From Alphaproteobacteria bacterium (lineage in GTDB: Bacteria > Pseudomonadota > Alphaproteobacteria > JANQMY01): a DNA stretch of 64,000 nucleotides. The stretch covers positions 773,326 through 837,325 of the forward strand of contig OZ245840.1 in NCBI GenBank assembly GCA_965228775.1. The letters run 5' to 3'. A program made the translations under genes and the position numbers. The notes below the pieces were generated by a model that was given only the letters and a program-made list of their open reading frames with translations, searched no databases and was not told the DNA's origin. This document shows positions 3,455-36,857 of the stretch, in pieces (position 1 is the first letter of the stretch; each line of letters opens with the position of its first letter).

Positions 3455-3526
3455 CCTGCCCACTCCCCCTCCCAAACCACCCACAGGGTACCCTTAACGG
3501 GTGGTTTGGGAGGGGGAGCGGGCAGG
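3455..3526. repeat. 72-nt near-perfect inverted repeat (28-bp stem, 1 mismatch, ~16-nt loop)
   Basis: CCTGCCCACTCCCCCTCCCAAACCACCC ... GGGTGGTTTGGGAGGGGGAGCGGGCAGG, lying between the DUF1761-like and DUF502-like genes. Confidence 0.7.
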
Positions 3527-3617
3527 CCGAGCCGATAATTTTATGCCTAGACAGAAGCCGGGCCAGCAGGCAGGTTTGCCGCTGTTTCCATTTGTACGCG
3601 TCACATTACGAGACTGA

Positions 3618-10500: not shown

Positions 10501-13500
10501 ACCGATGCCGTGCTGGTCCCTCCATTCCCGTCATCTGCTGTGTAATCAAAGCTGGCCGCCCCCACATAGTCCGCGTCCGGCGTAAACAGCACGTCGCCGT
10601 TTACATCCAGCGAGGCGGTTCCGTTCACGGCATTCCCCACCGAAGCGATCGTGAGCGTATTGTTTTCCGGATCGGTGTCATTCGCCAGCAAAACAGATGC
10701 CAGAATAGTGGTTGGTGTGTCTTCGACCACTGTGGTTGAGTCAGCCACTGCCGTTGGCGGATCGTTGACCTCCTGGACCTCGACATTGGCGGTTCCGGTG
10801 CTGCTGCCCCCGTTGCCGTCGTCCACTGTGTAATCAAAGCTGGCCGGCCCCACATAACCCGCATTCGGGGTGAACTGAACATCCCCGTTCACATCTAAGC
10901 TGGCTGTCGCGTTGACGGCATTGGTAACCGACGTGACAGTGAGCGTATCGTTTTCCGCATCCGTATCATTCGAGAGCAATGTGGATGCCGGGATTGTCGT
11001 GGGAGTATCTTCGGCTGCCGTCAAGGAATCGGCCACCACTACCGGTGCATCGTTCACAGCCGTCACATCGACCGTGACGGTCGCGGTATCAGTACCGCCA
11101 TTGCCGTCATCCGCCGTGTAATCGAAACTTGCCGTGCCGAAAAAGTTCGAGTCAGGTGTGAACAGCACGTCCCCATTCACGTCCAGAGAGGCCGTACCAT
11201 TTGACAGGTTCCCGACCGACGCAATTGTCAGCGTATCGTTTTCCGGATCGGTATCATTTGCAAGCAAAGACGATGCGAGCAGAGTCGTTGATGTGTCTTC
11301 GACAACGGTGACGGAATCCGCAACTGCCGCCGGTGGGTCATTAACCGGTGTCACATCCACCGTTACTGTCGTTGTGCTGGTACCACCGTTACCGTCATCG
11401 GCCGTGTAGTCGAAAGCCGCGGCGCCAACATAACCAGCATCGGGTGTGAACAGCACATTGCCATCTAGGTCGAGCGCGGCCGTACCATTTGACGGGTACG
11501 CAACAGAGGCGATCGTCAACGTGTCGTTGTCCGGGTCCGTATCGTTCGCAACCAATGTCGACGCCAAGATAGTTGTCGGCGTATCCTCCGGCACCGCTAC
11601 GGCATCCGCCACCGCGGTTGGCACATCATTAACCGGTGTGACGTTAACAGTCACTGTCGTCGTATTCGTGCCGCCGTTCCCGTCATCGGCGGTGTAGTCG
11701 AAGCTCGCCGCTCCCGCAAAATCCGCCGCCGGTGTGAAAACAACATCGCCGTTCACGTCTAGAGAAGCCGTGCCATTCACGGCGTTGCTGACAGAGGCGA
11801 TCGTCAGCGTATCATTCTCCACATCGGTGTCGTTCGACAACAAGGTCGCCGCAAGAATGGTTGCTTGCGTGTCCTCTACTGTCGTTGCCGTATCGGCAAC
11901 TGCAACCGGAGCATCGTTGACCGGCGTGACATCAACAGTCACGCTTGCGGTACTTGTTCCGCCATTTCCGTCGTCAGCGGTATAGTCAAAGCTTGCGGCC
12001 CCAACATAGTCCGCATTTGGCGTGAACACGACGTCGCCGTTCACGTCCAGAGAGGCCGATCCATTCACGGCAGCTCCCACCGACGCTATCGTCAATGTGT
12101 CATTTTCCGGGTCGGTATCATTCGCCAGCAATGACGAAGCCAAAATGGTTGTTGGTGTGTCTTCAGCAAGAGTGGCCGTGTCTGCCACGGCTGTTGGCGC
12201 ATCGTTCACGGCATTCACAGTAACCGATACTGTTCCGGTCGCGTTGCCGCCATTTCCGTCCGTAACCGTGTAGCTGAAACTATCCGCGCCTGCAAAGTCC
12301 GCATTCGGTGTATAAGTGACACTGAGATTGTCCAAAGCGACCGTAACGGTGCCGTTCGTGCCGTTTGTCGCCGAGACAATGGTGAGTGTATCAGCCTCAG
12401 CATCCGTATCGTTGGCCAGCGGCGTCACAACTACAGCAGTTTCCTCGTCTGTCGTGACATTGTCGTTAACGGCCACAGGCGCATCGTTAACCGCGTTGAC
12501 AGTTACAGTCACTGTTGCAGAGGCACTACCGCCATTTCCATCGGATGCGGTGTACGTGAAACTGTCCGCACCGGCAAAATCCGCGTTCGGTGTGTACGTC
12601 ACACTAAGACTGTCTAATGCTACCGTTACAGTGCCGTTTGTGCCGTTCGTAGCTGAAGCAATCGTCAGAGGATCGTTTTCCGCATCCGTGTCATTCGCCA
12701 GAGGACTGATGGTGACGGCATTGTCTTCATCCGTCGTCGCGCTGTCATCGACTGCCACCGGTGCGTCATTCACGGCGTTGACAGTCACTGCCACGCTGGC
12801 TGTGTCGCTACCACCATTTCCATCAGAGACCGAATAGGTGAAACTGTCGGCGCCGCTGTAGCCAGCGTTCGGCGTATAGGTGAGGCTGAGATTGTCGGGC
12901 GCGAGACTGACCGTCCCATTGGCGCCGTCAGTTGCGGACGCAATCGTTAGATTGTCACCGTCCACGTCCGTGTCGTTTGCCAACGGCGTGACTGTCACCA
13001 CACTGTCTTCGTCAACCGTTGCCGTATCATTGGCCGCTGTGGGTGCATCGTTCACCGCAGCCACATCGATCGTCACTGTCGCCGAATTGGTCCCGCCATT
13101 GCCATCATCGGCGGTGTAGTCAAAATTTGCACTGCCAGCGAAATTTGCATCTGGCGTGAACAGAACATCACCGTTCACATCCAATGCCGCTGTCCCATTG
13201 ACAGGACTTGCTACCGACGACAGCGTTAGCGTGTCATTCTCGGGATCGGTATCGTTGGCCAACAATGTCGCCGCCAATATGGTTTCCGGCGTGTCTTCCG
13301 TTGCGGTCGCCGAATCCGCGACGGCAACAGGCGGGTCGTTTACCGGACTAACGGTCACAGAGACGTTGGCCGTGTCGCTGCCGCCATTCCCGTCTGAGAT
13401 CGTATAGGTAAAGCTGTCCGCCCCTGAATATTCAGCATTTGGCGTGTAGGTTACGCTCACCCCATCCACCGCCACGCTGACTGTGCCGTTGGTGCCGTTC

Positions 13501-16049
13501 GTCGCGGCAGTAATTGTTAGGGTGTGTCCATCAACATCCGTATCATTGGCAAGCGTTGTGATTACGGCCGCTACGTCTTCATCTGTTGTCGCCGTATCGT
13601 CATTGGCGACAGGTGCATCATTAACGGCGTTGACCGTGACCGAAACCGACCCGGTAGCACTGCCGCCATTCCCGTCGGATACCGTATACGTGAAGCTATC
13701 GGCCCCCTCATAGTTTGCCGCCGGCGTGTATGTCACGCTGAGATTATCCACAGCGACACTCACTGTTCCGTTCGCGCCGTTGGTCGCGGAGGCGATGGTC
13801 AACGTATCGCCTTCCACATCCGTATCATTGGCAAGAGGGGTGATCGTAACAGCCGTGTCTTCGTCCGTTGTCGCCGTATCATTATTCGCGACGGGGGCAT
13901 CGTTTACCGGGGTGACGGTTACCGAGATCGTAGCCGTCGCCGAGCCGCCGTTTCCATCAGAGATCGTATACGTGAAACTATCCGATCCGTTATATCCGGC
14001 ATTCGGCATGTAAAGAATACTGAGGCCGTCCACAGCCACGTCAGCGGTACCATTTGTGCCGTTGGTGGCCGAAGCAATCGTCAACGTATCATTGTCAATG
14101 TCTGTGTCGTTCGTAAGCGGGTTTATCGTCACGAACTCGTCTTCGTTCACAACCGCCGTGTCGTCGACCGCCACCGGAGCATCGTTGGCGGCGGATACAG
14201 TGACGGTAACCGTCGCCGTGCTCGTTCCGCCATTGCCGTCGTCAGCGGTATAGTCGAAGGCCGCGCTGCCGAAGTAATCAGCATTGGACGTAAAGACCAC
14301 ATTGCCATTCACATCCAACACAGCACTGCCATTGATGACGTTTGCAACCGAGGCGATCGTCAACACGTCATTATCAGGGTCGGTATCGTTCGCCAGCAAT
14401 GTAGCCGCCAATATGGTTTCCGGAATGTCTTCCGTTGCCGTGACGGCATCGGCCGCGGCGACAGGGTCGCCATTCACTGCTGAATTCACGGTGACCGTGA
14501 TGGCCCCTGTGGCGTGGCCCCCTTCACCGTCACTGATGGTGTACGTAAAGCTATCCGTGCCGGCGAAGGACGCAGACGGCGTGTAAGTGAGGCTTGCACC
14601 GCCTGCGGCCACCGCCACGGTGCCATAGCTGCCGTTCGTCGCCGATGTGATCGTCAGCGGATCGTTGTCCGGATCCGTGTCATTGGCGAGGGCGCTGATC
14701 GTCACCGCGACGTCCTGATCCGTCGTGGCCGTATCGTTGTTCGCCACCGGGAATCCATTCCCCCCCGCCCCTGCAGCCCCAATAAAGGCCATCTCACAGC
14801 CAATACCGGTGAACACATGTTCCGAACTGGCAAGCCATGCATTGCTGTCACAATAGCCAACCGTGGAGTCGTAAATGAGGGTCGTGTTCGCGGTGCGCAC
14901 CCTGTAATGCACGGTGCCGCCGATATTTTCCTGCACGGCGGAGAACGAACTTTGGACAACGCCGTCTGCATTGATTACCAGAAGAAACCCTTTAACCACG
15001 AGAACCGAGACCGTTCCCGTATCGGTCATGCCGTCCGCATCGGAAATCGAATAGGTGAATTCATCAAGCCCCACATAGGCCGTATTCGGCGTATACCGCA
15101 CAACACCGGGAGAGATGATCGACGTCGTCCCATGGCTGCCGGCCGCAACGCTGTCCAGCGTGATCGCGTCGCCATCCGGATCCACATCATTCGACAAAAC
15201 TGAAATATCGAGCGCGGTTTCGAACTCGACCCGCACGCGGTCCATCACCGCCACTGGCGTGCGCTTGAACTGCACCGTAATGTCGGCGGACGCCATGCCG
15301 CCATAGCCGTCGCTCACCGTGTAACTGACAGTTTTTGACCCGACAAATCCCGGATTTGGATCGAACTGAATCTGGGTTCCATTGTTGATGATCTGCGCCG
15401 TCCCGCCCGTGAATGGCGTGACGCCCGTAATCGTGAGCTGGTGACCGTCGGCATCCGTATCATTCTGCCGTGGATCGATAACCAATTGCGTATCCACCAA
15501 TCCGGTTATCTGGTCCGCATTGGCGACGGGAGATTGATTGGCGTTAATCGTCAGCGAGACCGTGGCGGTGTCACTCCCGCCCCGCCCGTCTTCGATCGTG
15601 TAAGTGAATGAATCCGGCCCCAGGAAATCCAAATTGGGCGTGTATTCAAGCGTATTCCCATTCACCCTTACCAAGGTGCCGTTGCCCGGCGCCGTAAACG
15701 AAGCGACGGTCAATACATCATTGTTGCCGTCTGTGTCATTATCTGTCGGGTTGAACCTTCTGGTCTCATTTTGCACCAGTGTCAGCGTATCGTCGGCGGC
15801 CACGGGCGGCACATTGACCGGCACGTTGGATACCGTCTCGGACACCCGGTTGCCGGCGGCGTCGTGCACATAGTCCACTTGCGACCCGTCATCGTAGATG
15901 ATGCGTATGAGCCGCCCCAATTCGTCATAATCGTATGTTTCCGCAACGGCAGCGCCCGCAAGGACCGTGAGTGCTGAAAATGCAAAGAGGGCCTGGCGGA
16001 CACGGGCCACCACGCCGTTCGATTTCGATCGACCGTTAAGTTTTTGCAT
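7566..16049 (-). CDS. giant tandem-repeat adhesin-like protein (cadherin-like/VCBS-type repeats)
   Basis: ~2827 aa from ATG 16049 (MQKLNGRSKSNG..., signal peptide ALFAFSALTVLAGAAVA). About 23 consecutive ~95-aa repeats of the form VNDAPxA.DDtaTt.EDT...I....LLaNDTDpDnDTLTI.SV.....GtA.LD.NGDV.FTP.A.Y.G.ASFDYTADDGNGG....TVTV. An RHS-type YD motif (YDYDELGRLIRIIYDDGSQVDYVHDAAGNRVSE) lies near the N-terminus. Two non-repeat beta-sandwich-like inserts are present. Confidence 0.8.
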   Translation of the reverse strand: MQKLNGRSKSNGVVARVRQALFAFSALTVLAGAAVAETYDYDELGRLIRIIYDDGSQVDYVHDAAGNRVSETVSNVPVNVPPVAADDTLTLVQNETRRFNPTDNDTDGNNDVLTVASFTAPGNGTLVRVNGNTLEYTPNLDFLGPDSFTYTIEDGRGGSDTATVSLTINANQSPVANADQITGLVDTQLVIDPRQNDTDADGHQLTITGVTPFTGGTAQIINNGTQIQFDPNPGFVGSKTVSYTVSDGYGGMASADITVQFKRTPVAVMDRVRVEFETALDISVLSNDVDPDGDAITLDSVAAGSHGTTSIISPGVVRYTPNTAYVGLDEFTYSISDADGMTDTGTVSVLVVKGFLLVINADGVVQSSFSAVQENIGGTVHYRVRTANTTLIYDSTVGYCDSNAWLASSEHVFTGIGCEMAFIGAAGAGGNGFPVANNDTATTDQDVAVTISALANDTDPDNDPLTITSATNGSYGTVAVAAGGASLTYTPSASFAGTDSFTYTISDGEGGHATGAITVTVNSAVNGDPVAAADAVTATEDIPETILAATLLANDTDPDNDVLTIASVANVINGSAVLDVNGNVVFTSNADYFGSAAFDYTADDGNGGTSTATVTVTVSAANDAPVAVDDTAVVNEDEFVTINPLTNDTDIDNDTLTIASATNGTNGTADVAVDGLSILYMPNAGYNGSDSFTYTISDGNGGSATATISVTVTPVNDAPVANNDTATTDEDTAVTITPLANDTDVEGDTLTIASATNGANGTVSVAVDNLSVTYTPAANYEGADSFTYTVSDGNGGSATGSVSVTVNAVNDAPVANDDTATTDEDVAAVITTLANDTDVDGHTLTITAATNGTNGTVSVAVDGVSVTYTPNAEYSGADSFTYTISDGNGGSDTANVSVTVSPVNDPPVAVADSATATEDTPETILAATLLANDTDPENDTLTLSSVASPVNGTAALDVNGDVLFTPDANFAGSANFDYTADDGNGGTNSATVTIDVAAVNDAPTAANDTATVDEDSVVTVTPLANDTDVDGDNLTIASATDGANGTVSLAPDNLSLTYTPNAGYSGADSFTYSVSDGNGGSDTASVAVTVNAVNDAPVAVDDSATTDEDNAVTISPLANDTDAENDPLTIASATNGTNGTVTVALDSLSVTYTPNADFAGADSFTYTASDGNGGSASATVTVTVNAVNDAPVAVNDNVTTDEETAVVVTPLANDTDAEADTLTIVSATNGTNGTVTVALDNLSVTYTPNADFAGADSFSYTVTDGNGGNATGTVSVTVNAVNDAPTAVADTATLAEDTPTTILASSLLANDTDPENDTLTIASVGAAVNGSASLDVNGDVVFTPNADYVGAASFDYTADDGNGGTSTASVTVDVTPVNDAPVAVADTATTVEDTQATILAATLLSNDTDVENDTLTIASVSNAVNGTASLDVNGDVVFTPAADFAGAASFDYTADDGNGGTNTTTVTVNVTPVNDVPTAVADAVAVPEDTPTTILASTLVANDTDPDNDTLTIASVAYPSNGTAALDLDGNVLFTPDAGYVGAAAFDYTADDGNGGTSTTTVTVDVTPVNDPPAAVADSVTVVEDTSTTLLASSLLANDTDPENDTLTIASVGNLSNGTASLDVNGDVLFTPDSNFFGTASFDYTADDGNGGTDTATVTVDVTAVNDAPVVVADSLTAAEDTPTTIPASTLLSNDTDAENDTLTVTSVTNAVNATASLDVNGDVQFTPNAGYVGPASFDYTVDDGNGGSSTGTANVEVQEVNDPPTAVADSTTVVEDTPTTILASVLLANDTDPENNTLTIASVGNAVNGTASLDVNGDVLFTPDADYVGAASFDYTADDGNGGTSTASVAVDVTAVNDPPVAVADSVTATEDTPETILASTLLANDTDVESDPLTITSVGNGTNGSVALDVNGDVLFTPNSDYAGVASFDYTAGDGNGGSATATVTVNVSPVNDAPMAVSDNATILEDTPTTILASALLANDTDPENDTLTIASVANAVNGTASLDAGGDVLFTPNAAFIGTASFDYTADDGNGGTSSATVTVDVQAAPQLVRVEAESMTLTGFNTESVVGVASNDQIIHLPYLEFIGFESALPPFSGTATYTYSGQAGTFDLVLGYFDENDGTSTVDVSVNGSPVGSVTFDQQLGSARATAATKTSTVVATAIALTSGDTIQISGNTSVREFARIDYLDIIVNAAANNNPPTAVADTATISEDTPTTILASSLVANDTDPDNDTLTIASVANAANGTASLDVNGDVLFTPNANFSGAASFDYTADDGNGGTSTATVTVSVTAVNDFPTAVADTVAVTEDTLATILASALLANDTDPDNDTLTISAVGSATNGVVSLDVNGDVAFTPNAGYVGAASFDYTANDGNGGTSSVSVSVQVQTVNDPPVAVADSATVTEDTPATILASALLANDTDPENDTLTVASVANAVNGTASLDVNGDVLFTPATNFAGTASFDYTADDGNGGTNVATVTVTVTSVNDAPVAAGDSLTVTEDTPTTILASTLLANDTDVENDTLTITALGAATNGTASLDVNGDVQYTPNVNYAGSDSFTYDISDGNGGASSATVSIGVTAVNDAPTAVADSVTATEDTATTFLASTLLANDTDPENDTLTIASVANAVNGTASLDVNGDVLFTPNTGYTGAASFDYTANDGNGGTSSAVTVSVDVQAAAQPVRIETEDMSLTGFQTDTVSGVASNNQIVRLPSFIFFGIETGTGATVGTATSTFAGSAGTYDITLGYFDENDGTASAVVNVNGSAIGSKVFDQSLGSSTASAANKTSAVIATNVSLAPGDSIQIVGTRAGGEMVRVDYLDIVPSP
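8080..14800. repeat. ~285-bp intragenic tandem repeats (about 23 copies) within the adhesin gene
   Basis: Highly similar protein repeats are mirrored at the DNA level. They produce many spurious antisense ORFs with an SPFTS...VPF...SVSFSGSVSFA periodicity. Confidence 0.75.
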
Positions 16050-16816
16050 TCCGTAAAAGATCCTCGCACTCAAATAGTCAAAGGGGTGCATCAGGCACAC
16101 CAATAGCGGCAACGTTTCCGGCATTCGAAAACGAACACAAACAAGCGCAAACCTGCTTACCGTGATACGCAATAGAGCGGCGATGCGCTCCGTACAAAGA
16201 TTATCAATCGAGGAAGTTTTGTGTGACGGCCCAATGAGCAAGACAGCTCAAAAATATCACACGATAGAAAATCCCCCCACTGCACGAAGCGCACAATCGG
16301 CGTGTCCTTCGCGCGGCAATTCACACACACCTGTTTAGCGTGTGTCAAGTTAAAGTTTCCCGAAAATCGTTCACATTCTGCGCGTGTATAAATTTTCTTA
16401 TTCAACACAGCAACATAGCGGAAAAAATAGTTATTCTGCTTACTGATTATTTTCATAAATCCGATTTCACAAAAACTTTGCAATTTCGGATTGTGAACTC
16501 AAAACGAGATTTTTCTGTTGACTCACTCATGCGTTGTGAGCAGCATTGCCGCCGAGAGTAACTTTGGGGGGACAGCTGTTTGCTTCCGGAATGGGAGCAA
16601 CGCTATCGACAGGGGTTCATCCAACTATTCGTGTTCATGCGTTCTTTGAACTCTCTCAACAGTGACACATAAGCAATTCTCAGGGGTAAATCTCGGGAGT
16701 AAATCTCGAGCGCAAATCTCGAAGATGAGTCCTGGCCGTGATGACGACAGTCATGCACGCGCGCATATATGTGCGGCGCGCGGCCGGGGAAGTTTTATTT
16801 AACGTGGAGGCCGTCG

Positions 16817-19800
16817 ATGTCCGCGAACGGTGGTGGTGTGTTTGGTTTTGGTGCGTTGACCTTAAAGAATCTTTGTCGGATGGGTACGGTTGGAACCGTT
16901 GCTCTGGCGGCCGCAACGGCCAATCTATTGTTGGACGACTATCCTGCGGCCGCGCAAGTCGTTGTTGAGGTTGATGGCACCCCGCCTCCACCGCAATCGT
17001 TTATTGAAGACACACTTCCAGCCATGCGGCTGCGCTCTATGCCGCTTATATCGCCTACAGATGCGTGGACATACTACCAAGCAAACGGAGGCAATACATC
17101 GCCGGCTGACCCGACACCAAACTATAGAATTGGCAGCTATGCGGCGAACGTTCTGGCAGCCCCATCCCTAATCCAGGAAAACATTCATGACAGTGTCGAG
17201 CTAACCCCCCTATTTGGTCTCCAGAAAGGCGCGGTGGGAGCGATTACGAATGGTACCGGCACAACGTTTGACATGGCGCACTTGGCCGTCAGCTTATTGC
17301 GGGTAAGCAGTGTTCCGGAGAGACCGATAACAGCCAACTATAAGTTTGGGACCGTGACGCTCAATGCGGAACAATTCGGCAAATGGTTTGGTGTTTTCGA
17401 TAACCTTGATGAAGCGAATCAAACATTCACGGTTTCGGCCACAGCCGCCTGCAAAATCCTCGCCGATGGTGGATTTCCAGCCCAAATTAATGGCAACAGC
17501 CCATCAGATTGCAATATCAGCGGTAATCTCAGCACGGTTACCTTCTCTCACGTTTGGGTTAGCGGAACCATTGATGGCGCCCCATTCGAGTTCGACCCAT
17601 CTTATAAGCAACACCGTTTGCATGCCGGTATCCCAAACTTAGCGGGCGCCTTAGGTCACTCGAGTGCCAAAACAACGGCATTGATGAACCTTATAAGCTG
17701 CTCCGCAAGCAACTGCACAAACTTCAATGCCAATGCCGTTAAGCCGGAGATTCAAACTCTCGCCGATAATCTGCTCACCTACATCAAAAACAACGATGAG
17801 AGTCTGCGTTTAGAAGGTTTGCTGGGCGGCAAAACGATTGAACATCTCACGAATGCAGATTTGTCGCTCCCAACCGGCCCGACCTATCAAGCAACGGCCA
17901 CCTGGACTCAGCATATTCCCAACGTCTTCAGAACAACGGTTGTGATTGAAGACAGCGCGACAGTATATCAAAAGAGAGCCACTCAATCCGCGCCGCCGAC
18001 AAACGGCTTTATCATCACAACGGTGACTTTTCCGCACGAGCTGAGATCAAACGTCTTTAACTTTTCAAAGACATTCTATGCCGATGAGATCAACGGCGAG
18101 CGCATTTGGATTGATCCCAAAAAAGTTTTCATTCTCCAAGACAACACGGTAACTCCTAACCGTTTCTATCCGGTGGCTCAGCATAAGCTCCGGATCGATA
18201 CGGATATCTTCGAAATGAATCCATTGGACGGTGGTTTTTTCCTCAATCCGTATGCGCACTACAAATATGATATTGGTGCGATTGCCGAAGAACTCGGTGT
18301 TCCAGACGGGCAAAATTACAAAGGCCAGTTTCCGGTCCGCCTGACGTCGGTTCCGTTTAAAATCACGGTAAATCATCCCTATGCAGCAAATAACGGCACG
18401 GGCATGGACCGTGTCTATAAGCGCAAAGTCGATATTACGCATCCCGCCGTTCTTGTGGTTGGCCTTGGCGATACCACAGACCGTTGGGTCGAAGAAATCG
18501 CCCGCTACGCGTCTTTCCCGATATCGGCACGTACGGATATTCAGAATCAGAACAACGACAACTGGGCCGGATTCGAGCCCTATTCCACGGAAGCCTCACA
18601 TGTAACCGGGGCCACCTGGCTGTCAGGTTTTTCAAAACTCGCAAAAATTCAAGAAGCCATCTCAAAATCAACGATACAGCATCACCACACAATCGGGTTT
18701 GTGATGCGCGACACCCAAAGCACCACAGTATCCGGGAACACTGTCGCTGGGTCGTTTGCGGAAACAATATCTCTAGATACAGCCGTAAGCGTTAATACAC
18801 AGATAGACGCATCAAACCTGCGCCTGCCAACATTTCGCGTGCTTGCAAGTGGGGGCGCCGCGCTGGAAGGACTGGCCATTAGTGAGGTTTATGACTTCGC
18901 ACAACCGTCAACGGTTGGTGGCTACGTGGCCGATTTGGGCGCGTCGAACAAAACTTTCCAAAACTACACCGCATCAGGCTCGGTGGTTGCGGCCCGCACA
19001 TCTGCAATGGATGGTCAAAGCCCGGCGTTTTCCCTCGAAGAAAAAGACTACGTCAACCGCTACTACACCGGCGGTTTTGATGTCTTCATGGCCCTAAACC
19101 AAACGGGTGGGTCAGCCAACGCCCCGCAGCTTGGTTTTGGAACCGCTTCACCCAACAATTTCCTTCACAAGTTCCGAACCCTTATTGCAACCAAGACAGA
19201 CGGAACCGAGATCGCTCATGCTCTCATTGACCGTTGGAACATTTTCAAAGGTGGCGCGGGCATACCGGAAGTCACTCATGATGGGTTTTCAAACCTTGGC
19301 CTCAACTATTCAGGTGCCCGCGCAGCCTCGGGAGCTGCTCTGACGGGTTTTGACGCAATCAGCGGAACACTTACGTACTCGCCGCCGGCCTATATTTCGG
19401 TTGGCAATGGCAGTTATCCTTACACCCTTAGTTTCCGGCAACATTTTAACTCCCACGACCTGAACAACTGGACGCACAATCTGGACAGCAAGGTTACCGT
19501 GGGCACAAATGTGTCGGTGTCGCTTGGGCGCAACCGCGCGCTTGATGCCGTCTGGGCCATTGCAGCCAGCTTCGCTGCCCTTGATGTTTACAGCGACGAT
19601 GCCATCGACCATATGCTGGTCGGCGCCGTGGTGATGGACCAATGGGCGCGCGCCTCCGTTCATAATGTCGCCACGGTGAAACGCGGCACGGACGTGATAC
19701 AGTTTTCCCGTGCCAGCGATGGCGCATTCATGGCCCCTCTTGGGCGCACGGAGTCGTTAACAATGGTCGGCACGGGGCCTGCCCGTTTCGCGCAAGATCT

Positions 19801-22800
19801 TTCGGGACAATCCTACGCCCACAATGTTTTCGACTACCGCAATGCGGAATTCGATCTGACAACCACCGACGGACAGACTTATCAATTTAGACATGCACCA
19901 TTGGTCGGCGGTTCCGCCAGCAATGTGCGCACGGCCTCTATTCCGTTGGCGGATCATCTGTTTGCCAACGGCATGACTGTTGCCTACGATAACGAATATA
20001 CGCCCTACCAAAACGATTTACCCACCGGCGGCACCACCTCTCTCACCCGCGTCTCCAATTCATTGGGGCATTCACTTGAATTTGCTTACAACCGAAACGA
20101 CTCCTCTTCCGGCGCCTATGGGTCCGGAGCGCTGGCTGGTGTTATTCGCGGTGTGCGCGATGCCAATGGCCGGGAAGCCTTTCTTCACTACGACTACAAC
20201 GCAAACTACGACAACAAGCCACACCTGGCCTTTTTCCCAACAGGTGTCACATTGCCGGATGGCGAAAGATATAACTATTTCTTTCAATCTCATGACCGAA
20301 GCTTACCACCGTCAACGAATGGGCGTCTGACTCCGACCGCAACCCAACTTGTTCGTGAATATTGGAAACCCAGGCTCTTTGCGATTACCACGCCGAGCGC
20401 GCCAACGTTTCTTTTTTTGGATTTCACATATGACGGCTTCGGTAAGATCCGAATGGTTAAAGATGCCTACGGAAACCCTTCCGGCTTCTATCGGGCGCCC
20501 GGACGCAGCCAAGTGCTTAACTCGGAAGGGGAAACCACTGCCCAATACTTCGACAAAGATGGCAACGTATTCGGCGCATTCGATTCGCTCGGAAACCTCA
20601 CGACGGCTGAATATGACGGGTTCAACCGTCTGACGAAGGTGACCCGTCCCGAAGGCGACGAAACCCATTACGAATACGATGGCGGCGCCACGGCATCCGC
20701 CTCCGTCAATCACAACCTGACAAAAGTAACACGCAAAGCCAAACCCGGTACCGGCGACAGCGACCTTGTCGCCACCTATGAATACACGGATACCAACTGG
20801 CCCAATGCCGTCACCGCATCGGTAAACCCAAGAGGAACGCGCAGCGAAGTCACCTACGACGCTACGTCGGGACTTCCCACCAGCACGAAAGCGGCTGTCA
20901 GCCTGCCGGAAGAGGTGACAACCCAAACCACCTACATCAATTTAGGCCGTGTCGATAAACAAATTGTCGACCCCACCGGCCTTAATGAAATTACGCAGTT
21001 TACGTATTACCCGGTTTCCGGCGCGTCCAATACATTCCACACCAATGGCGAACTACAAACGGTCACCGTTGACCCGACCGGATTGGCTCTTGGAACGTCT
21101 TACGAATACGACGATGTGGGCAACACCACCAAAGTGACCGACCCCAACACCAACTTTGTCACCACCACCTATGACGCCATGCGGCGGCCATTGCAGGTAG
21201 ACGCACCGCTCAATGCCGTCACCAAGAACATATATGACGTGGATGGCCGTCTGATCAGAACCGAACAGGCCACGGACGATTCACTCAACCCTTGGGCCAT
21301 CACCAACTTTACCTATGATGCACTCAACCGTCTGCGGCAGGTGGCCGATCCCACCGGGGCCGTTACACAGACCGATTATGACAAAGTAGGCCGGCCCACA
21401 GTGGTCACCGACGCCCTTCTGCGCAAAGTCAAGAACGTATACGACGCCGGTGGTCAGCTTATCAAAGTGATCGCCGCCTATCAGGGCACCACGGATGATT
21501 GCGTAGACGGCACCACATTGCAGCAATGCTATCAGCGCAACACCTATTCACCGAACGGCCGCTTGCTCAGCGTTCAGGACGCGAACGATAACATCACCAC
21601 CTATGCCTATGACGGTCATGACCGGCTATTCACATCCACCTTCCCGGACACGTCGTTTGAGCAGTTCACTTACGACGCCAACGGCAATGTTATTGAGCGG
21701 CGCACCCGTGCGGGCGAAACCATCGATCTTACTTACGATGCGCTGGACCGGGTGGCGGCCCGCGAGGTGCCCCAGCCGGGCACGCCCACACCGATTACGT
21801 ATACCTCGGCCTACGACAAGGCGGGGCGCATCGCCTCGCTCATGGGCGATGGCAAGACGCTTACCTTCTCTTACGACAAAGCCGGGCGCCTCACCGCCAA
21901 GCTGCACGGTCTGGGCGGCGGCGGAGGCACCACCAGCATCGGCTATGCCTATGATGCCGCCAGCAACGTCACCCAGCTCACCTATCCCGATGGCTGGTTT
22001 GCGACCCACGAATACGATGCGCTCAACCGGCTCGACCGCATTCTGGAAAACGGCACGCGGGTGCTGGCGGATTATGCCTATGACAAACAATCCCGGCGCA
22101 CCTCCGTTGCCTATGGCAATGGCGCAAACTCCGCTTATACCTTCACCGCACGGGGAGATCTGACGGACCTTACCCTGAACTTCGCCGTTCAGCAGGCGTC
22201 GTTCACCCATGCCTATGACGGGGTGGGACAGCTCACCGGGCGCACTCTGTCCGATCCGGCCTTTGCTCCGAAAGCCCTTCAAGCCGGTGCCACCAATTAC
22301 ACCGCCAACACGCTTAATCAGTATGCGTCTGTTGGCGGGTCCGCCTATACCTATGATCAGAACGGCAACCTCACCGGCACGCCCATCGGCAGTTTCGCCT
22401 ATGACGCGGAGAATGTGCTGCGCAGCGGCACGGTGAACGGCCAGGCCTTCTCCTACACCACCTGGCCCGACGGCAACCGCGCCTCCAAGACCGTGGGCAG
22501 CCTGGACACGGTGTTCTATCTCAATGGCAATCAGGTGATCGCTGACTACGACGGCGGCGGCACCCTCCTGCGCCGTTATGTGCGCGGGCCCAGCGTGGAC
22601 GAAGCCTTCCTGATGATCGACTACACAGGCGCCTCCCCGCAAGAAACCTGGGCCCACCAGGACCGGCTGGGCTCCACCATCGCCGTCAGCGACGATACCG
22701 GCGCTGTACAGGAAAAGATCACCTATGCCTCCTTCGGGGAGACGCAAGCGCAGACCGGCTTCCCGTTCAAGTTCACCGGCCAGCGTTTCGATCCGGAGAC

Positions 22801-23491
22801 GGAGCTTTACCACTACAAAGCCCGATACTACTCCCCCACCCTCGGCAGGTTCCTACAAACCGATCCAATCGGCTATGGATTGGACACCAACCTTTATACG
22901 TATGCACGCAACAACCCACACAGCTATACAGATCCAAGTGGAGAAATCCTGGATACAATACTTGATGCGATTTTTATTGTTTACGACGTTGCTGTGCTGG
23001 CCGTCGATGAAATATTCAATGGAGGAGCAAATAGAACTGAAAACCTGATCGCATTGGGAGCCGATGTTGCCGGCGCGGCGACGCCATTTGTAACAGGCGC
23101 CGGTTTGGGGGTTCGTGCAGCAAACAACGTGGGAGATGTCGTGAAACAGGTGCCCGGGGATAGGGCGCTTGACGCATCTAGCTCAGTCAATCAAGTATTG
23201 TTGCGCAATCAACTTAGTGCAGAGCAAATCGCCAAAGGCCATGCTTTCGACAAGCATGTTGTAACTCGCGGGGAGTATGTTGGTCTTGGGATACGAACCA
23301 GAGCCCAGTTTCAAAATCATGTTGAAAGCGTTATAAACAATCCATCCGCCTCCAGACAGCTGGCAAACGGCAGGGAGGCTTTTTGGGACGACGCGACAGG
23401 CACCGTTGTTATTCGTGATCCTAGACACCTAGATGGCGGGACAGCATTCAGACCCGATCTTGGACGTGAGTACTTCATGCAACTAAAGTAG
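16817..23491 (+). CDS. Rhs/YD-repeat polymorphic toxin with variable C-terminal toxin domain
   Basis: ~2224 aa from ATG 16817 (GGAGG 7 nt upstream). The ORF-track frame opens at 16769. Many YD repeats (YDALNRL, YDVDGRL, YDAGGQL, YDGHDRL, TYDANGNVIERR, YAYDAASNVTQLTYPDGW...). Canonical RHS repeat-associated core (...DRLGSTIAVSDDTGAVQEKITYASFGE...FTGQRFDPETELYHYKARYYSPTLGRFLQTDPIGYGLDTNLYTYARNNPHSYTDPSGE) ending in the DPxG autoproteolysis-type motif. It is followed by a ~190-aa divergent C-terminal domain. Confidence 0.9.
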   Translation: MSANGGGVFGFGALTLKNLCRMGTVGTVALAAATANLLLDDYPAAAQVVVEVDGTPPPPQSFIEDTLPAMRLRSMPLISPTDAWTYYQANGGNTSPADPTPNYRIGSYAANVLAAPSLIQENIHDSVELTPLFGLQKGAVGAITNGTGTTFDMAHLAVSLLRVSSVPERPITANYKFGTVTLNAEQFGKWFGVFDNLDEANQTFTVSATAACKILADGGFPAQINGNSPSDCNISGNLSTVTFSHVWVSGTIDGAPFEFDPSYKQHRLHAGIPNLAGALGHSSAKTTALMNLISCSASNCTNFNANAVKPEIQTLADNLLTYIKNNDESLRLEGLLGGKTIEHLTNADLSLPTGPTYQATATWTQHIPNVFRTTVVIEDSATVYQKRATQSAPPTNGFIITTVTFPHELRSNVFNFSKTFYADEINGERIWIDPKKVFILQDNTVTPNRFYPVAQHKLRIDTDIFEMNPLDGGFFLNPYAHYKYDIGAIAEELGVPDGQNYKGQFPVRLTSVPFKITVNHPYAANNGTGMDRVYKRKVDITHPAVLVVGLGDTTDRWVEEIARYASFPISARTDIQNQNNDNWAGFEPYSTEASHVTGATWLSGFSKLAKIQEAISKSTIQHHHTIGFVMRDTQSTTVSGNTVAGSFAETISLDTAVSVNTQIDASNLRLPTFRVLASGGAALEGLAISEVYDFAQPSTVGGYVADLGASNKTFQNYTASGSVVAARTSAMDGQSPAFSLEEKDYVNRYYTGGFDVFMALNQTGGSANAPQLGFGTASPNNFLHKFRTLIATKTDGTEIAHALIDRWNIFKGGAGIPEVTHDGFSNLGLNYSGARAASGAALTGFDAISGTLTYSPPAYISVGNGSYPYTLSFRQHFNSHDLNNWTHNLDSKVTVGTNVSVSLGRNRALDAVWAIAASFAALDVYSDDAIDHMLVGAVVMDQWARASVHNVATVKRGTDVIQFSRASDGAFMAPLGRTESLTMVGTGPARFAQDLSGQSYAHNVFDYRNAEFDLTTTDGQTYQFRHAPLVGGSASNVRTASIPLADHLFANGMTVAYDNEYTPYQNDLPTGGTTSLTRVSNSLGHSLEFAYNRNDSSSGAYGSGALAGVIRGVRDANGREAFLHYDYNANYDNKPHLAFFPTGVTLPDGERYNYFFQSHDRSLPPSTNGRLTPTATQLVREYWKPRLFAITTPSAPTFLFLDFTYDGFGKIRMVKDAYGNPSGFYRAPGRSQVLNSEGETTAQYFDKDGNVFGAFDSLGNLTTAEYDGFNRLTKVTRPEGDETHYEYDGGATASASVNHNLTKVTRKAKPGTGDSDLVATYEYTDTNWPNAVTASVNPRGTRSEVTYDATSGLPTSTKAAVSLPEEVTTQTTYINLGRVDKQIVDPTGLNEITQFTYYPVSGASNTFHTNGELQTVTVDPTGLALGTSYEYDDVGNTTKVTDPNTNFVTTTYDAMRRPLQVDAPLNAVTKNIYDVDGRLIRTEQATDDSLNPWAITNFTYDALNRLRQVADPTGAVTQTDYDKVGRPTVVTDALLRKVKNVYDAGGQLIKVIAAYQGTTDDCVDGTTLQQCYQRNTYSPNGRLLSVQDANDNITTYAYDGHDRLFTSTFPDTSFEQFTYDANGNVIERRTRAGETIDLTYDALDRVAAREVPQPGTPTPITYTSAYDKAGRIASLMGDGKTLTFSYDKAGRLTAKLHGLGGGGGTTSIGYAYDAASNVTQLTYPDGWFATHEYDALNRLDRILENGTRVLADYAYDKQSRRTSVAYGNGANSAYTFTARGDLTDLTLNFAVQQASFTHAYDGVGQLTGRTLSDPAFAPKALQAGATNYTANTLNQYASVGGSAYTYDQNGNLTGTPIGSFAYDAENVLRSGTVNGQAFSYTTWPDGNRASKTVGSLDTVFYLNGNQVIADYDGGGTLLRRYVRGPSVDEAFLMIDYTGASPQETWAHQDRLGSTIAVSDDTGAVQEKITYASFGETQAQTGFPFKFTGQRFDPETELYHYKARYYSPTLGRFLQTDPIGYGLDTNLYTYARNNPHSYTDPSGEILDTILDAIFIVYDVAVLAVDEIFNGGANRTENLIALGADVAGAATPFVTGAGLGVRAANNVGDVVKQVPGDRALDASSSVNQVLLRNQLSAEQIAKGHAFDKHVVTRGEYVGLGIRTRAQFQNHVESVINNPSASRQLANGREAFWDDATGTVVIRDPRHLDGGTAFRPDLGREYFMQLK
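21670..22867 (+). repeat. ~1.2-kb direct repeat copy A (inside main rhs, YD/RHS-core region)
   Basis: Near-identical at nucleotide level to 24576-25771. Encoded peptides are identical apart from a few substitutions (e.g. DALDRVAAREV vs DPLDRVATRVV). Confidence 0.85.
22915..23491 (+). other. Rhs C-terminal toxin (CT) region: hydrophobic/Gly-rich pre-toxin segment plus unclassified toxin domain
   Basis: Downstream of DPSGE: ILDTILDAIFIVYDVAVLAV (hydrophobic), Gly/Ala-rich TPFVTGAGLGV (PT-TG-like), then a basic His-rich domain with AKGHAFDKHV ... GTVVIRDPRHLDGGTAFRP. No recognisable known toxin family by eye. Confidence 0.5.
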
Positions 23492-23500
23492 AAGATAAAG

Positions 23501-23827
23501 ATGGCTGTAGTCTCTGATAAAATTCTTCAAATAATTAACCGCTCAATTCAAACTATTACTACCACAGAGCTAATCGAAGATTGGGAGTTCGCCATTGTGC
23601 TCGGAATTGAACGAAGTGTTCTTTCTGAGATGAGGAAAATCAGCAATCCCCTAGATTCGAGCGATCTTGACACAAGCATCAATGTGCTTCTCAATCTCGT
23701 CGGCTACCCGCATGGCAAGAAAGCAATCGTTGAAGAAAGCGTCGGTTTTTCTACTAGCGAGTTAAAAGCTGTGTTGGATGAACTCATCAAGCTCAGAGAA
23801 GAGTCCGGCGATAATGGCAACTCTTAA
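23501..23827 (+). CDS. putative cognate immunity protein of the Rhs CT toxin
   Basis: 108-aa acidic ORF starting 10 nt after the rhs stop, in an AT-rich tract. Position immediately 3' of a polymorphic toxin CT is the canonical immunity-gene position. No family recognised. Confidence 0.5.
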   Translation: MAVVSDKILQIINRSIQTITTTELIEDWEFAIVLGIERSVLSEMRKISNPLDSSDLDTSINVLLNLVGYPHGKKAIVEESVGFSTSELKAVLDELIKLREESGDNGNS

Positions 23828-24506: not shown

Positions 24507-24575
24507 TTGGTCAAGCCTTTTTGTGCCCAAAAACGGCCACAGGATTGGCATTCCCCAAACCTTCTTCTGTTCGCT

Positions 24576-25771
24576 TTACGACGCCAACGGCAATGTTATT
24601 GAGCGGCGCACCCGTGCGGGCGAGACCATCGATCTCACTTACGACCCGCTGGACCGGGTGGCGACCCGCGTGGTTCCCCAGCCGGGCACGCCAACACCGA
24701 TTACGTATACCTCGGCCTATGACAAGGCGGGGCGCATCGCCTCGCTCATGGGCGATGGCAAGACCCTCACCTTCTCTTACGACAAAGCCGGGCGCCTCAC
24801 TGCCAAGCTGCACGATCTGGGTGGCGGCGGGGGCACCACCAGCATCGGCTATGCCTATGATGCCGCGAGCAATGTCACCCAGCTCACCTATCCCGATGGC
24901 TGGTTTGCGACCCACGAATACGATGCGCTCAACCGCCTCGACCGCATTCTGGAAAACGGCACGCGAGTGCTGGCGGATTATGCCTATGACAAACAATCCC
25001 GGCGCACCTCCGTTGCCTATGGCAATGGCGCAAACTCCGCCTATACCTTCACCGCAAGGGGAGACTTGACGGACCTCACCCTGAACTTCGCCGTTCAGCA
25101 GGCGTCGTTCACCCATGCCTATGACGGGGTGGGACAGTTGACCGGGCGCACTCTGTCCGATCCGGCCTTTGCCCCGAAAGCCCTTCAAGCCGGTGCCACC
25201 AATTACACCGCCAACACGCTTAATCAGTATGCGTCCGTTGGCGGGTCCGCCTATACCTACGACCAGAACGGCAACCTCACCGGCACGCCCATCGGCAGTT
25301 TCGCCTATGACGCGGAGAATGTGCTGCGCAGCGGCACGGTGAACGGCCAGGCCTTCTCCTACACCACCTGGCCCGACGGCAATCGCGCCTCCAAGACCGT
25401 GGGCAGCCTGGATACGGTGTTCTATCTCAATGGCAATCAGGTGATCGCTGACTACGACGGCAGCGGCACCCTGCTGCGCCGCTATGTGCGCGGGCCCGGC
25501 GTGGACGAAGCGTTCCTGATGATCGACTACACAGGCGCCTCCCCGCAAGAAACCTGGGCCCACCAGGACCGGCTGGGCTCCACCATCGCCGTCAGCGACG
25601 ACACCGGTGCGGTACAGGAAAAGATTACCTATGCCTCCTTCGGGGAGACGCAAGCGCAGACCGGCTTCCCGTTCAAGTTTACCGGCCAGCGCTTCGATCC
25701 GGAGACGGAGCTTTACCACTACAAAGCCCGCTATTATTCCCCCACCCTCGGCAGATTCCTTCAAACCGATC
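24576..25771 (+). repeat. ~1.2-kb direct repeat copy B (orphan rhs fragment)
   Basis: See copy A (21670-22867). Divergence begins at ACCGATCC | CAATCGG versus CGTAGGG. Confidence 0.85.
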
Positions 25772-25959
25772 CCGTAGGGTATGCGGATCAGATGAATTTA
25801 TACGGGTACGGTGGTAATGATCCGATAAATCTGAAAATCCGGCAGGCGAATAACGGTATCCATTCATGGACAAGTCACCCCAAAGAGACTACCTGTTGTG
25901 ATACGAGGCGTAACTCCTTATGTCATTCTTTGACATCTGGGAAAAGTAATCGGTATTGA
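24576..25959 (+). pseudogene. orphan rhs C-terminal module (promoter-less, no start codon, truncated CT)
   Basis: The reading frame begins abruptly inside YD-repeat sequence identical to main rhs 21670 onward. It retains the RHS core up to RFLQTDP, then diverges (VGYADQMNLYGYGGNDPINL...) into a ~45-aa Cys-rich tail before the stop. No immunity ORF follows. The 3' end overlaps the convergent gspC-like gene. Confidence 0.7.
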
Positions 25960-26453
25960 TCTCCTTCGGTTACAAAGTGGACGGCCTCTTTGTCGATTGA
26001 GGCCACCTTCCATCCCGCCACGGCATCTCCAACCGATAACATCTCCCCTTCGCTTTGGGGTGTTTTCTTAAAGATCGCCTTCTGATCATTCCCAACGACG
26101 ATCGTTCCCACCAAGATCATTCGAGATAGAATGGTCTTGGCATCGGGAGGCGCCGGTGAAGCGGCCTTATTCGCTACTCTATCACTTTTATCTTTAACCG
26201 GCCGTTCCATATAGGTTCGGCTGGCGTGAAAGATAGGCTTCTCCTTGACGCTTTTATATGCCTTCAGTTCGGGCGTCTCGAAAGCCCATTGGGTCGTCGC
26301 GAGTGCAGACTCGTTTCGGGCAGAAGACCCGTCTGTGACCTCCAAATCCACCTCTATCGATCCAATGGTCAGCATATGCCAAGCAGCAATCGCGCCAACC
26401 GTAATTATCGACCCGATCAAAAATTGCGTAGCGGCGGGTTTAGCCATTCGCAC
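25923..26453 (-). CDS. T2SS GspC/PilP-like component (short, no PDZ domain)
   Basis: 176 aa. N-terminal TM (FLIGSIITVGAIAAW). The C-terminal EGEMLSVGDAVAGWKVASIDKEAVHFVTEGDQYRL resembles the GspC/PilP homology region that contacts the secretin. Last gene of the gsp operon. Confidence 0.4.
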   Translation of the reverse strand: MRMAKPAATQFLIGSIITVGAIAAWHMLTIGSIEVDLEVTDGSSARNESALATTQWAFETPELKAYKSVKEKPIFHASRTYMERPVKDKSDRVANKAASPAPPDAKTILSRMILVGTIVVGNDQKAIFKKTPQSEGEMLSVGDAVAGWKVASIDKEAVHFVTEGDQYRLLFPDVKE

Positions 26454-27027
26454 TCGCCTCTACATTTTGAACAAATCCGGAAACACCAAGCGTAACGTTT
26501 AGGACCGGGTTCCGGTCGCGGTTTGCCTCTCCTGCTCTTTGCTGTTTTACAGCCAAGCTATCCACGATGAGATATGGAACGGTCTTCTCAATATCGTAGA
26601 GAACCTTTTCCAACACTTGCATGTCGCCGTTAAAGGTAATGACGACAGGCACGCGCAAATTCTTGCCCGCCGGCGCCGAGGGGCGCCCTTGCGAACTGGT
26701 TACCTGACCGCCATGGTCCAAAATCCATTTCTTTAGGTCAGCTTGAATGGACGCCACAGCCACTGTGGGCGTCGCCGCTGATCGCAGAAAGGTTTGGTCA
26801 AAATCGGAGGCGTTTAAATCAGAAAGGCGCGCTGACAGATCGCCCGTGCTGCTGGCAATACGTTTGTATTGCGCCAGTTGGTGTTTTGCGTCGGCAATCG
26901 CATCTGTGTGGTCCATATATTCAGTCAACACTGGCCTCACAATAGAAACCGCAGCCACCCAAACCACAAGCGTCAAGATCATGAGAGCAAGCGTCTTTTG
27001 CTGCCAGCCGGAAAGCATGTTCATCAT
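26440..27027 (-). CDS. gspM: type II secretion system protein M
   Basis: 195 aa. Single N-terminal TM (LALMILTLVVWVAAVSIV) plus periplasmic domain. Position after the gspL-like gene and size typical of GspM. Confidence 0.55.
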   Translation of the reverse strand: MMNMLSGWQQKTLALMILTLVVWVAAVSIVRPVLTEYMDHTDAIADAKHQLAQYKRIASSTGDLSARLSDLNASDFDQTFLRSAATPTVAVASIQADLKKWILDHGGQVTSSQGRPSAPAGKNLRVPVVITFNGDMQVLEKVLYDIEKTVPYLIVDSLAVKQQRAGEANRDRNPVLNVTLGVSGFVQNVEASANG

Positions 27028-27032
27028 GTTCG

Positions 27033-28094
27033 TTAATCCCGCTTAAGGTTGACCATCAAGTCATATCGCTCACCTTTTTGCCGAGGGTCCTGCCGCACAG
27101 GTGATTGGAACCTGGCATTCGCAAACAATGGGGACTTCTCCAATAACTCCGGCAATATGGCGGCATTTTCGGCATACCCCATCAATCGTACCGAAGTCCC
27201 CTGCAGCCTCATTTCGGAAACCCAAGCCGTCTTGGGTATGATGCGAGAGAGTTCCGCCATTATAGCAAGCGGTGACGGTGCGATCTTCTGCTGGATCAGA
27301 GTGAGTCTGCTTTGCTCTAAGACATTCAGCTCCCGCTCAATGTCTGCAGCATGCTGAGCCTCGGCTTTCGCCCCCACAATCGCCGACTGCCACACTGAAA
27401 TGTCCTGCTGCCATCGATCTTGTACGACGCCCCAGGTAAACAACGAGGCCGAAACAAGTAATGCAAAGAGCAGAGCATTCAGCCGAAAAGTCGTTAGTCC
27501 GCTGGCTTTTCCGTCATGGGGTAGAAAATTATACCGGATATCTGATGTGCTTTTCTCCAACAGTCCGATGCCGGACGGCTTTACCCCCCAACTTGCAACC
27601 TTGTTCAGTACATCTTCAATGGCGTTTCGGCGAACGATTGCCAAATTGACCGCGACTTTCTCACTCACGGGTTTCCGTTCCAGCACCATATGATCGAAGA
27701 AAATCTGATCCGCCTTAACCGGTGACAACCGATCAATCTGCAATGCGATTACGCTTCTTAGGTTGGCTGACGCCGCGGTCGGAAAATCAAGTTGTCGGAC
27801 AAATGCTTGATCTGCTGAGATCGCGACTTGAAATGATTTCGCATTCTTGAGTGCCGCAAGCTGCCTTGGACGCTTAGCCCCCGCACGCACGCGCTCCAAA
27901 ACCGAAACGGTACCTCGCCTCCTTTTATAGATCGTGATCTCATCCCCGTGGAAATCAACAAACACACCGGACGAGCGACCGCCCGTTCTGGCGATGGGGG
28001 GCACCATCGACAGCAGCTCATTAGTCCACCATTTCCAGGCAGTCTCCAACAGGTCAGCAGACCTCGACAAGGTTCCAGTCTCAACGGGCATCAT
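27033..28094 (-). CDS. gspL: type II secretion system protein L
   Basis: 353 aa. Cytoplasmic actin-like N-domain, central TM (LLFALLVSASLFTWGVV), periplasmic C-domain. Sits between gspJ and gspM. Confidence 0.6.
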   Translation of the reverse strand: MMPVETGTLSRSADLLETAWKWWTNELLSMVPPIARTGGRSSGVFVDFHGDEITIYKRRRGTVSVLERVRAGAKRPRQLAALKNAKSFQVAISADQAFVRQLDFPTAASANLRSVIALQIDRLSPVKADQIFFDHMVLERKPVSEKVAVNLAIVRRNAIEDVLNKVASWGVKPSGIGLLEKSTSDIRYNFLPHDGKASGLTTFRLNALLFALLVSASLFTWGVVQDRWQQDISVWQSAIVGAKAEAQHAADIERELNVLEQSRLTLIQQKIAPSPLAIMAELSRIIPKTAWVSEMRLQGTSVRLMGYAENAAILPELLEKSPLFANARFQSPVRQDPRQKGERYDLMVNLKRD

Positions 28095-30051: not shown

Positions 30052-30077
30052 TGCCCCCTCGTTAATTGCTCACGTAA

Positions 30078-31295: not shown

Positions 31296-31296
31296 C

Positions 31297-36812: not shown

Positions 36813-36857
36813 TCACGATCCGCAGATCCACCTCTTCGCAGGACTAGAATACTGGAG

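Follow-up and report, generated by a model that had tools for sequence, protein, structure and literature searches.

The stretch of DNA analyzed here, referred to as the window, comprises 64,000 nucleotides of an alphaproteobacterial genome (GCA_965228775.1, contig OZ245840.1, positions 773,326 to 837,325). It contains an Rhs toxin gene at 16817..23491 on the forward strand, recognized from its open reading frame (ORF), its translation and its matches to the RHS repeat and the Rhs core. The frame is open from 16769 to 23491, and the likely start is the ATG at 16817, with a GGAGG located 5 nucleotides (nt) before it. The product has 2,224 amino acids (aa) and is of the fused B+C type. The original prediction placed the gene beside a divergent giant adhesin gene and 2.4 kb from a complete type II secretion system (T2SS), and it proposed that the toxin is exported by a Sec/T2SS-dependent or adhesin-assisted route instead of a type VI secretion system (T6SS). 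Both neighbors were found as described: the adhesin is a Big_9/cadherin ORF (7566..16241, reverse strand), and a full gsp set, identified by Pfam, lies downstream.

The Rhs protein has the multiple RHS/YD repeats that characterize Rhs/YD polymorphic toxins. Nine stretches matched the Pfam family PF05593, RHS_repeat (E 5e-39), and the NCBIfam model TIGR01643 (YD_repeat_2x) also matched the protein (E 1e-32). The RHS-associated core (NCBIfam TIGR03696) spans aa 1970-2042 and ends in PTLGRFLQTDPIGYG...YTDPSGE, a bipartite DPxG autoproteolysis motif (PxxxxDPxG...DPxG) followed by 182 unique residues. The protein also has, like other toxins of this type, a core ending in PxxxxDPxG with a variable toxin behind it. 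Shell and core together occupy aa 906-2042 (19532..22942, +) and include the aspartyl autoproteolysis motif DPIG...DPSG. A DUF6531-like plug stands at the start of the shell (aa ~845-905; 19349..19531, +; GFDAISGTLTYSPPAYISVGNGSYPYTLSFRQHF). The full YD shell and the DPxG-bearing core of the original prediction were confirmed by these matches.

The region before the shell had been described as ~1000 residues of unknown type with only a short hydrophobic segment. Such a region is present, but its extent is ~800 aa, since the DUF6531-like plug begins at aa ~845. The description of its content did not hold, because the hydrophobic segment is the h-region of a predicted Sec signal peptide and a transglutaminase-like fold is predicted behind it. 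The signal peptide, predicted by inspection and hydropathy, covers aa 1-46 (16817..16954, +). Its n-region contains K17 and R21, its h-region is MGTVGTVALAAATANLLL (aa 22-39), and its c-region reads DDYPAAA|Q, with cleavage at ~46 (the bar marks the predicted site, here and below). Inspection of the n-, h- and c-regions thus identifies the N-terminal Sec (or Tat) signal peptide that is expected of a T2SS substrate. Relatives have classical signal peptides in the same place, for example, MLCNFRLMLATTVVLPISLVAGTAYA|EPP in protein P0001.

The domain behind the signal peptide (aa ~66-295; 17012..17701, +) gave weak sequence matches to PF01841 and to the structure 3isr, and PF01841 matched 12 of 17 family members. 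An AlphaFold2 model of the domain, built from a 17-sequence alignment, had pLDDT values mostly of 86-95. These residues are predicted to form a transglutaminase/papain-like fold, as found in the transglutaminase-like cysteine proteases (PF01841/BTLCP), but without the Cys-His-Asp triad of those enzymes. The window protein reads GTTFDMAHL where G-x-C-x-x-F-A is expected, and the family motif is G-T-[A/P/T]-F-D-Q-A. Where the catalytic Cys would stand, the window protein has Thr, and the family as a whole has Ala, Pro, Thr or Asp; the residues His245 (SHVWV) and Asp260 (FDPSYK) are invariant. Unlike LapG and PeiW, transglutaminase-like cysteine proteases that have the catalytic Cys, this family is without it, and the domain is probably a binding module and not a protease. 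The middle region that follows (aa ~296-844; 17702..19348, +) is family specific, with the conserved motifs HPYAA..G.YMD, QHHH.xG, LEGS and KGGG, and no known fold was matched in its ~550 aa.

The C-terminal toxin region begins after the DPxG site (aa 2043-2224, 182 aa; 22943..23488, +) and consists of a hydrophobic, Gly-rich leader of ~65 aa and a domain of ~115 aa. A candidate immunity gene (23501..23827, +), whose role is assigned from its position only, starts 10 nt past the Rhs stop codon. Its product of 108 aa is without a signal peptide, suggesting that the toxin acts in the cytoplasm of the target. Farther downstream, RHS_repeat matches reveal an orphan Rhs C-terminal fragment (24523..25959, +). 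Positions 24569-25772 of the fragment are 95.8% identical at the nucleotide level to 21664-22866 of the main Rhs gene, and the fragment diverges after DPVGY into a different, short and apparently truncated tip. The near-identical fragment records the replacement of a tip by recombination.

The T2SS genes form two groups. On the reverse strand (25923..32982) are a possible gspC-like gene, gspM (subtype b), a gspL-like gene (PilN domain), gspJ, gspI, gspH, gspG, gspF and gspE. On the forward strand (33803..37598) are the secretin gene gspD (N0, Secretin_N and Secretin domains), gspK and the prepilin peptidase gene gspO. The gspC-like ORF gave nothing significant in Pfam and PDB searches; its end overlaps the end of the orphan Rhs fragment (25923-25959).

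An exhaustive HMMER search with the Rhs N-terminus retrieved 1,163 cluster representatives (E<=1e-3), of which 279 remained at the stricter cutoff of E<=1e-30. Word-indexed searches, whether the query was the N-terminus or a 17-sequence profile, had returned only one or two proteins and implied an orphan N-terminus, which the HMMER result overturned. The cluster members are named "hypothetical" or "YD repeat-containing." An N-terminal hydrophobic h-region was present in 125 of 150 family representatives. Almost all members start with a classical signal peptide, behind which comes a conserved LPSVKIGTAPLVSPSAA.TYYG segment that is also present in the window protein. A genome scan provided 78 homologous loci, on which the neighborhood counts below rest. 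Most are alphaproteobacterial (Caulobacter, Phenylobacterium, Nitrospirillum, Azospirillum, Rhizomicrobium and Sphingomonadales), and a minority is gammaproteobacterial (Steroidobacteraceae, Nevskia and Hydrocarboniphaga). Plasmid carriers from the Burkholderia cepacia complex, Caballeronia, Variovorax and Methylomonas were added by tblastn. Cultured carriers include Methylomonas sp. UP202, Nitrospirillum iridis DSM 22198, Caulobacter strains (e.g., Caulobacter sp. KR2-114) and B. contaminans LMG 23361.

The lengths of family members cluster at ~1300-1450 or 2000-2400 aa. An origin of the shorter class from truncated contigs was ruled out, because complete B-like genes with an overlapping C-like gene behind them were found. 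In about nine loci the Rhs gene is split into a B-like gene (~1350-1490 aa) and a C-like gene (~860-1040 aa), and the split point maps to aa ~1446 of the window protein. The nine pairs are in L050, L062 (two pairs), L063, L070, L031, L002, L049 and L056. Six of them (L050, L062a, L062b, L063, L070 and L056) have an ATGA overlap at the junction, and their first ORF ends in ..DPR[AG]GAC-x or ..SRASAC-xx; the genes of L031 overlap by GTGA, and the junctions of L002 and L049 differ. At least seven of the nine pairs have a separate signal peptide on the second ORF, the N-terminus in L002 and L049 being ambiguous from the crude ORF call. The C-like ORF reads MSRLIACPAAGRVWSVAALLLAAVMALGVIAPARA|QTASDYTTYYQWD.., and the mature protein opens with a YD-like hairpin (QTASDYTTYYQWD..RRLTMKIGPDPDG). 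Since the halves carry separate signal peptides, the cocoon would join only after Sec export. No other single argument for assembly of the family beyond the inner membrane is as strong as these separately exported halves, as predicted from sequence.

The window adhesin (7566..16049, −) has 2,827 aa when read from the ATG at 16049, and its full ORF has 2,891 codons. It consists of a signal peptide (..LAGAAVA|E), a YD repeat at the mature N-terminus, ~25 Big_9/cadherin-like repeats and a C-terminal domain of 145 aa. From the ATG at 16049 it reads MQKLNGRSKSNGVVARVRQALFAFSALTVLAGAAVA|ETYDYDELGRLIRIIYDDGSQVDYVHDAAGNRVSETV, the YD repeat itself (ETYDYDELGRLIRIIYDDGSQVDYVHDAAGNRVSETV) lying at 15941-15831 (−). 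The C-terminal nonrepeat domain (8003-7569, −; PVRIETEDMS...VDYLDIVPSP) looks by eye like a CBM6/CBM35 lectin, but the best match, CBM35 2vzp, was not significant (E 2.1), and a CBM35-like character is only hinted at.

The YD repeat of the adhesin is shared by other neighbors of the family. When all flank ORFs of the 78 loci were clustered, one ORF family was found immediately upstream of the Rhs gene in 51 loci, at a median distance of ~0.9 kb and on either strand. A hidden Markov model of its tag detected it in 57 of the 69 loci whose upstream DNA extended for 1.5 kb or more. These partner proteins have a signal peptide and then one YD repeat, 1-4 residues past the predicted cleavage site, with the consensus xYTYDxLGRLxxVTYxxGxxIxYxYDAAGNR. 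What follows the tag varies in length, from proteins of only ~40 mature residues up to thousands of residues of immunoglobulin (Ig)/cadherin repeats. The annotation pipeline PGAP lists an 83-aa precursor, "RHS repeat domain-containing protein," ahead of the Rhs gene on Burkholderia and Methylomonas plasmids. Same-strand partner genes end at or overlap the Rhs start, suggesting coexpression. The window adhesin is a member of this partner family, which explains its odd RHS_repeat match. Since the C-like subunit also begins with a YD hairpin, the tag may, by analogy, dock by extending the beta-spiral of the shell.

In L016 (6186-9920, +), a variant partner of 1,245 aa lies upstream, with its YD unit ~690 residues into the protein and not at the mature N-terminus. 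On the plasmid of B. contaminans LMG 23361 (L079, 13001-20991), an IS3 element is located between the 83-aa YD-tag gene and the Rhs gene; this plasmid is conjugative, and no T2SS was found nearby.

Linkage to T2SS genes was scored by tblastn with the window proteins GspD, GspE, GspF and GspG within a 10-kb radius, ~62 of the 78 loci having useful flanks. At least one of these genes was found within 10 kb of the Rhs gene in 18 loci, and Pfam confirmed their identities. By chance, less than one linked locus would be expected (binomial P 2e-16 even at a 2% rate). The 18 loci belong to unrelated taxa and have differing gene orders (Azospirillaceae, Caulobacterales, Sphingomonadales, Steroidobacteraceae, Nevskia and others), and 16 of them also have the YD-tag gene. 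On the Methylomonas plasmid pUP202, the tag gene, the Rhs gene and a 130-aa ORF are located between gspE-F-G-...-Mb and gspK-gspD. The other recurrent neighbors were Rhs ORFs and three small families found in four loci each, namely, a PAS histidine kinase, a T4SS-coupling-like ATPase and a pseudopilin-like ORF with an N-methyl motif. Beyond these, the YD-tagged partner and the T2SS components, no neighbor recurred in the 78 loci.

No marker of T6SS delivery was detected in the proteins, window ORFs and neighborhoods scanned. PAAR, VgrG-related, SpvB, FG-GAP, WXG and LXG families had no match in the Rhs protein at E<=1 (Pfam and NCBIfam), and no T6SS-related family, including PAAR, matched the N-terminal 860 aa of 17 family members (E<=0.01). 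The Rhs protein thus does not have the N-terminal PAAR, prePAAR or VgrG-binding module by which T6SS Rhs effectors are recognized. In the window, the larger ORFs between 4333 and 57109 were scanned and included no T6SS genes (1-4332 and 57110-64000 lay outside the scan). Linkage to vgrG, hcp, Eag/DUF1795 or DUF4123 was found neither in the scanned ORFs nor as a recurrent family in the 78 loci; the partner and the T2SS recur there instead. The absence of PAAR, T6SS and WXG/LXG features reported in the original prediction therefore holds for the protein and the scanned ORFs, and the proposed check of homologous neighborhoods for vgrG and hcp also favored a non-T6SS route. With an N-terminus without PAAR or adaptor, with signal peptides, with T2SS linkage and with the partner family, the Sec/T2SS/adhesin hypothesis is supported by comparative genomics but not proven.

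These results suggest, with a probability of about 0.55, that the Rhs protein is a polymorphic toxin exported via Sec and then the T2SS, not the T6SS, and working with a separately exported partner. The Rhs protein and the adhesin would each cross the inner membrane by means of a Sec signal peptide. The shell would fold in the periplasm around the C-terminal toxin, and the DPxG site would be cleaved. The YD hairpin of the partner could then join the beta-spiral of the shell, as by analogy the C-like subunit may do, and so tether the Ig-repeat stalk with its possibly glycan-binding tip. The neighboring T2SS would move the assembly to the cell surface or into the medium, where the stalk and the Cys-less transglutaminase-like domain may bind the envelope of the target. 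The toxin would finally enter the competitor cell, while the producer would be protected by the cytoplasmic 108-aa product.

Several points weigh against this. Cargo of the T2SS passes, already folded, through a secretin channel whose width is limited, and the main doubt is that a ~240-kDa Rhs cocoon with a 2,800-aa stalk would be an unusually large T2SS cargo. The T2SS evidence is wholly one of gene neighborhood, and in 60 of the 78 loci no T2SS lies inside the 10-kb radius, although one may be encoded at another place in the genome. In the signal peptide of the window protein, the n-region is long and the h-region moderately hydrophobic (Kyte-Doolittle value of 1.8 versus ~2.2 in relatives). 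The C-terminal toxin had no significant Pfam or PDB sequence match, and the 108-aa immunity candidate had no family match in the same searches.

Another possibility is that the toxin acts by contact while it remains displayed on its producer. The Rhs protein and the adhesin would then stay on the outer membrane, much as teneurin-like proteins or WapA do, and the T2SS would serve for display or for other cargo. Bacterial teneurin-like proteins do unite a YD shell with Sec signals and domains for adhesion (PMC13018210), and the partner in the window is a giant Ig/cadherin adhesin. The cytoplasmic-type immunity gene and the orphan tip also suggest cell-to-cell competition. However, no lipobox, beta-barrel or cell-wall-binding domain was seen in either protein, the NHL and FN-plug domains are absent, and adhesion is not the core role of the partner, because many partners have only ~40 residues. 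Surface display was judged unlikely on this evidence.

The natural split into parts of ~1350-1490 and ~860-1040 aa resembles TcB/TcC, and the C half matched TcdB2-TccC3 and YenC2 in PDB sequence searches (E 1e-9 to 4e-7). This could point to a Tc-like BC cocoon directed against eukaryotic cells, which would be released by lysis or vesicles instead of the T2SS and translocated by an A-like component still to be identified. Such a role seems improbable. T6SS-type Rhs proteins are far closer in sequence (E 1e-30), and they are also the source of the closest solved relatives of the shell (8h8a, 8qjb, Tse5 and Tse15). In addition, neither the scanned ORFs of the window nor the recurrent neighbors included SpvB, an FG-GAP propeller or a TcA-like gene, the subunits of the split pairs have signal peptides unlike Tc subunits, and an immunity-like gene with orphan tips is typical of antibacterial Rhs systems. 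The same solved relatives would suit a T6SS effector whose N-terminus is a cryptic adaptor, with the T6SS and its PAAR/VgrG proteins encoded elsewhere, the genome having been seen only within the window; the nearby T2SS would then reflect hitchhiking in an island. This is highly improbable, given that signal peptides are present family-wide, including on the split subunits, that neither PAAR in the scanned members nor a recurrent T6SS family in the 78 neighborhoods was found, and that linkage to the T2SS was found repeatedly, in taxa that are unrelated and differ in gene order as well as on a plasmid.

T2SS-dependent export would not be without precedent for an Rhs protein. Functionally, the nearest precedent is Bcn-A of Xanthomonas perforans, a 1,398-aa RHS bacteriocin that is active in the supernatant; mutation of the secretin gene xpsD abolishes this activity (PMC7259588). 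In a preprint, Gomez Cabrera et al. (2025) predicted from gspG adjacency that XRhs F VIII of Xanthomonas and RRhs F II of Ralstonia are translocated by the T2SS, and they stated that this was unconfirmed (10.1101/2025.05.08.652813). Like these proteins, the window protein would be an RHS-family antibacterial toxin that acts outside the T6SS. Bcn-A has three small accessory ORFs, whereas a YD-tagged partner, a Cys-less transglutaminase-like domain and an embedded complete T2SS are not reported, as compared by the text of the papers. No locus from Xanthomonas or Ralstonia was among the 80 best genome hits.

The T6SS Rhs proteins (RhsA of P. protegens, Tse5, S. bongori Rhs and Tse15) share with the window protein the YD shell, the DUF6531-type plug, the autoproteolytic DPxG core, the encapsulated polymorphic toxin, a downstream immunity gene (a candidate here) and orphan tips. 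The window protein differs from them in having no PAAR/prePAAR, VgrG, Eag or DUF4123 partners and in having a signal peptide and a different N-terminal region of ~800 aa. The TcB-TcC pair is likewise a two-gene cocoon that encloses a toxin and is split at a comparable point, as in some family members. In contrast to Tc, the family has no SpvB/TcB N-domain, beta-propeller or TcA (no Pfam matches and no propeller in the models), its subunits are predicted to be Sec exported, and an immunity gene is present, as a candidate. Bacterial teneurin-like proteins (BiTLP; PDB 9pt5 and 9ifo) share a Sec signal peptide, N-terminal accessory or adhesion parts, a DPxG-cleaved YD shell and a similar length. 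Their superfold of FN-plug, NHL propeller and YD shell with a TIP domain was not found in the window protein, and the adhesion module here is a separate protein that may be joined by the YD tag. The YD-tag partner, the Cys-less transglutaminase-like domain and the separately exported B and C halves appear undescribed in the searchable literature.

In Gram-negative bacteria, Rhs toxins are generally regarded as cargo of the T6SS. If a family of more than 1,000 clusters does use Sec and the T2SS, the known routes of interbacterial toxin delivery would be widened, and the Rhs genes in Caulobacter and Azospirillaceae would be accounted for. The mechanical question would then be how a cargo as large as an Rhs cocoon passes a secretin. 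A more general version can be put forward tentatively: the tag, B-like and C-like parts may each be Sec exported and snap together by their N-terminal YD hairpins, and a dedicated, sometimes plasmid-borne T2SS may expel the assembly. The YD hairpin would be a general plug-in connector for any stalk, from nothing to a 2,800-aa adhesin. Such a machine, if true, would be a functional counterpart, built for the T2SS, of the Tc ABC toxins and of VgrG/PAAR loading. Subunits that are exported on their own, and a partner with a YD tag, suggest that cocoons are made from parts by a simple rule, which could be reused in protein engineering.

Some further observations were made in the window and among the carriers. 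At 38771-57109, the products of the ten large ORFs are transporters, regulators and enzymes of sugar-nucleotide metabolism. Those at 38771-44015 (−), an MMPL/RND-like transporter, a LolA-like protein, an unassigned 412-aa ORF and a TetR regulator, are apparently unrelated to the Rhs gene. In the set L006, L017, L025, L061 and L069, metagenome-assembled genomes labeled "uncultured Flavobacteriaceae" carry a family Rhs gene (L006 and L061) together with proteobacterial-type T2SS genes. Misassignment of the bins or a transfer of the module may account for this.

A 93-aa ORF (23871-24152, +) separates the immunity candidate from the orphan fragment. Its N-terminal segment, FSAITCALSAIGVLFLASATLATA, is hydrophobic, and its tail is acidic and rich in Pro and Gln; it gave nothing significant in Pfam and PDB searches. 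In the intergenic DNA 5' of the Rhs gene, three direct copies of (T/C)AAATCTCG occur at 16687, 16700 and 16713 with a 13-nt spacing. The triple repeat (16687-16721) lies in the divergent promoter region of the adhesin and Rhs genes, which measures 575 bp, or 767 bp if the adhesin starts at the ATG at 16049, and it may be a binding site for a regulator.

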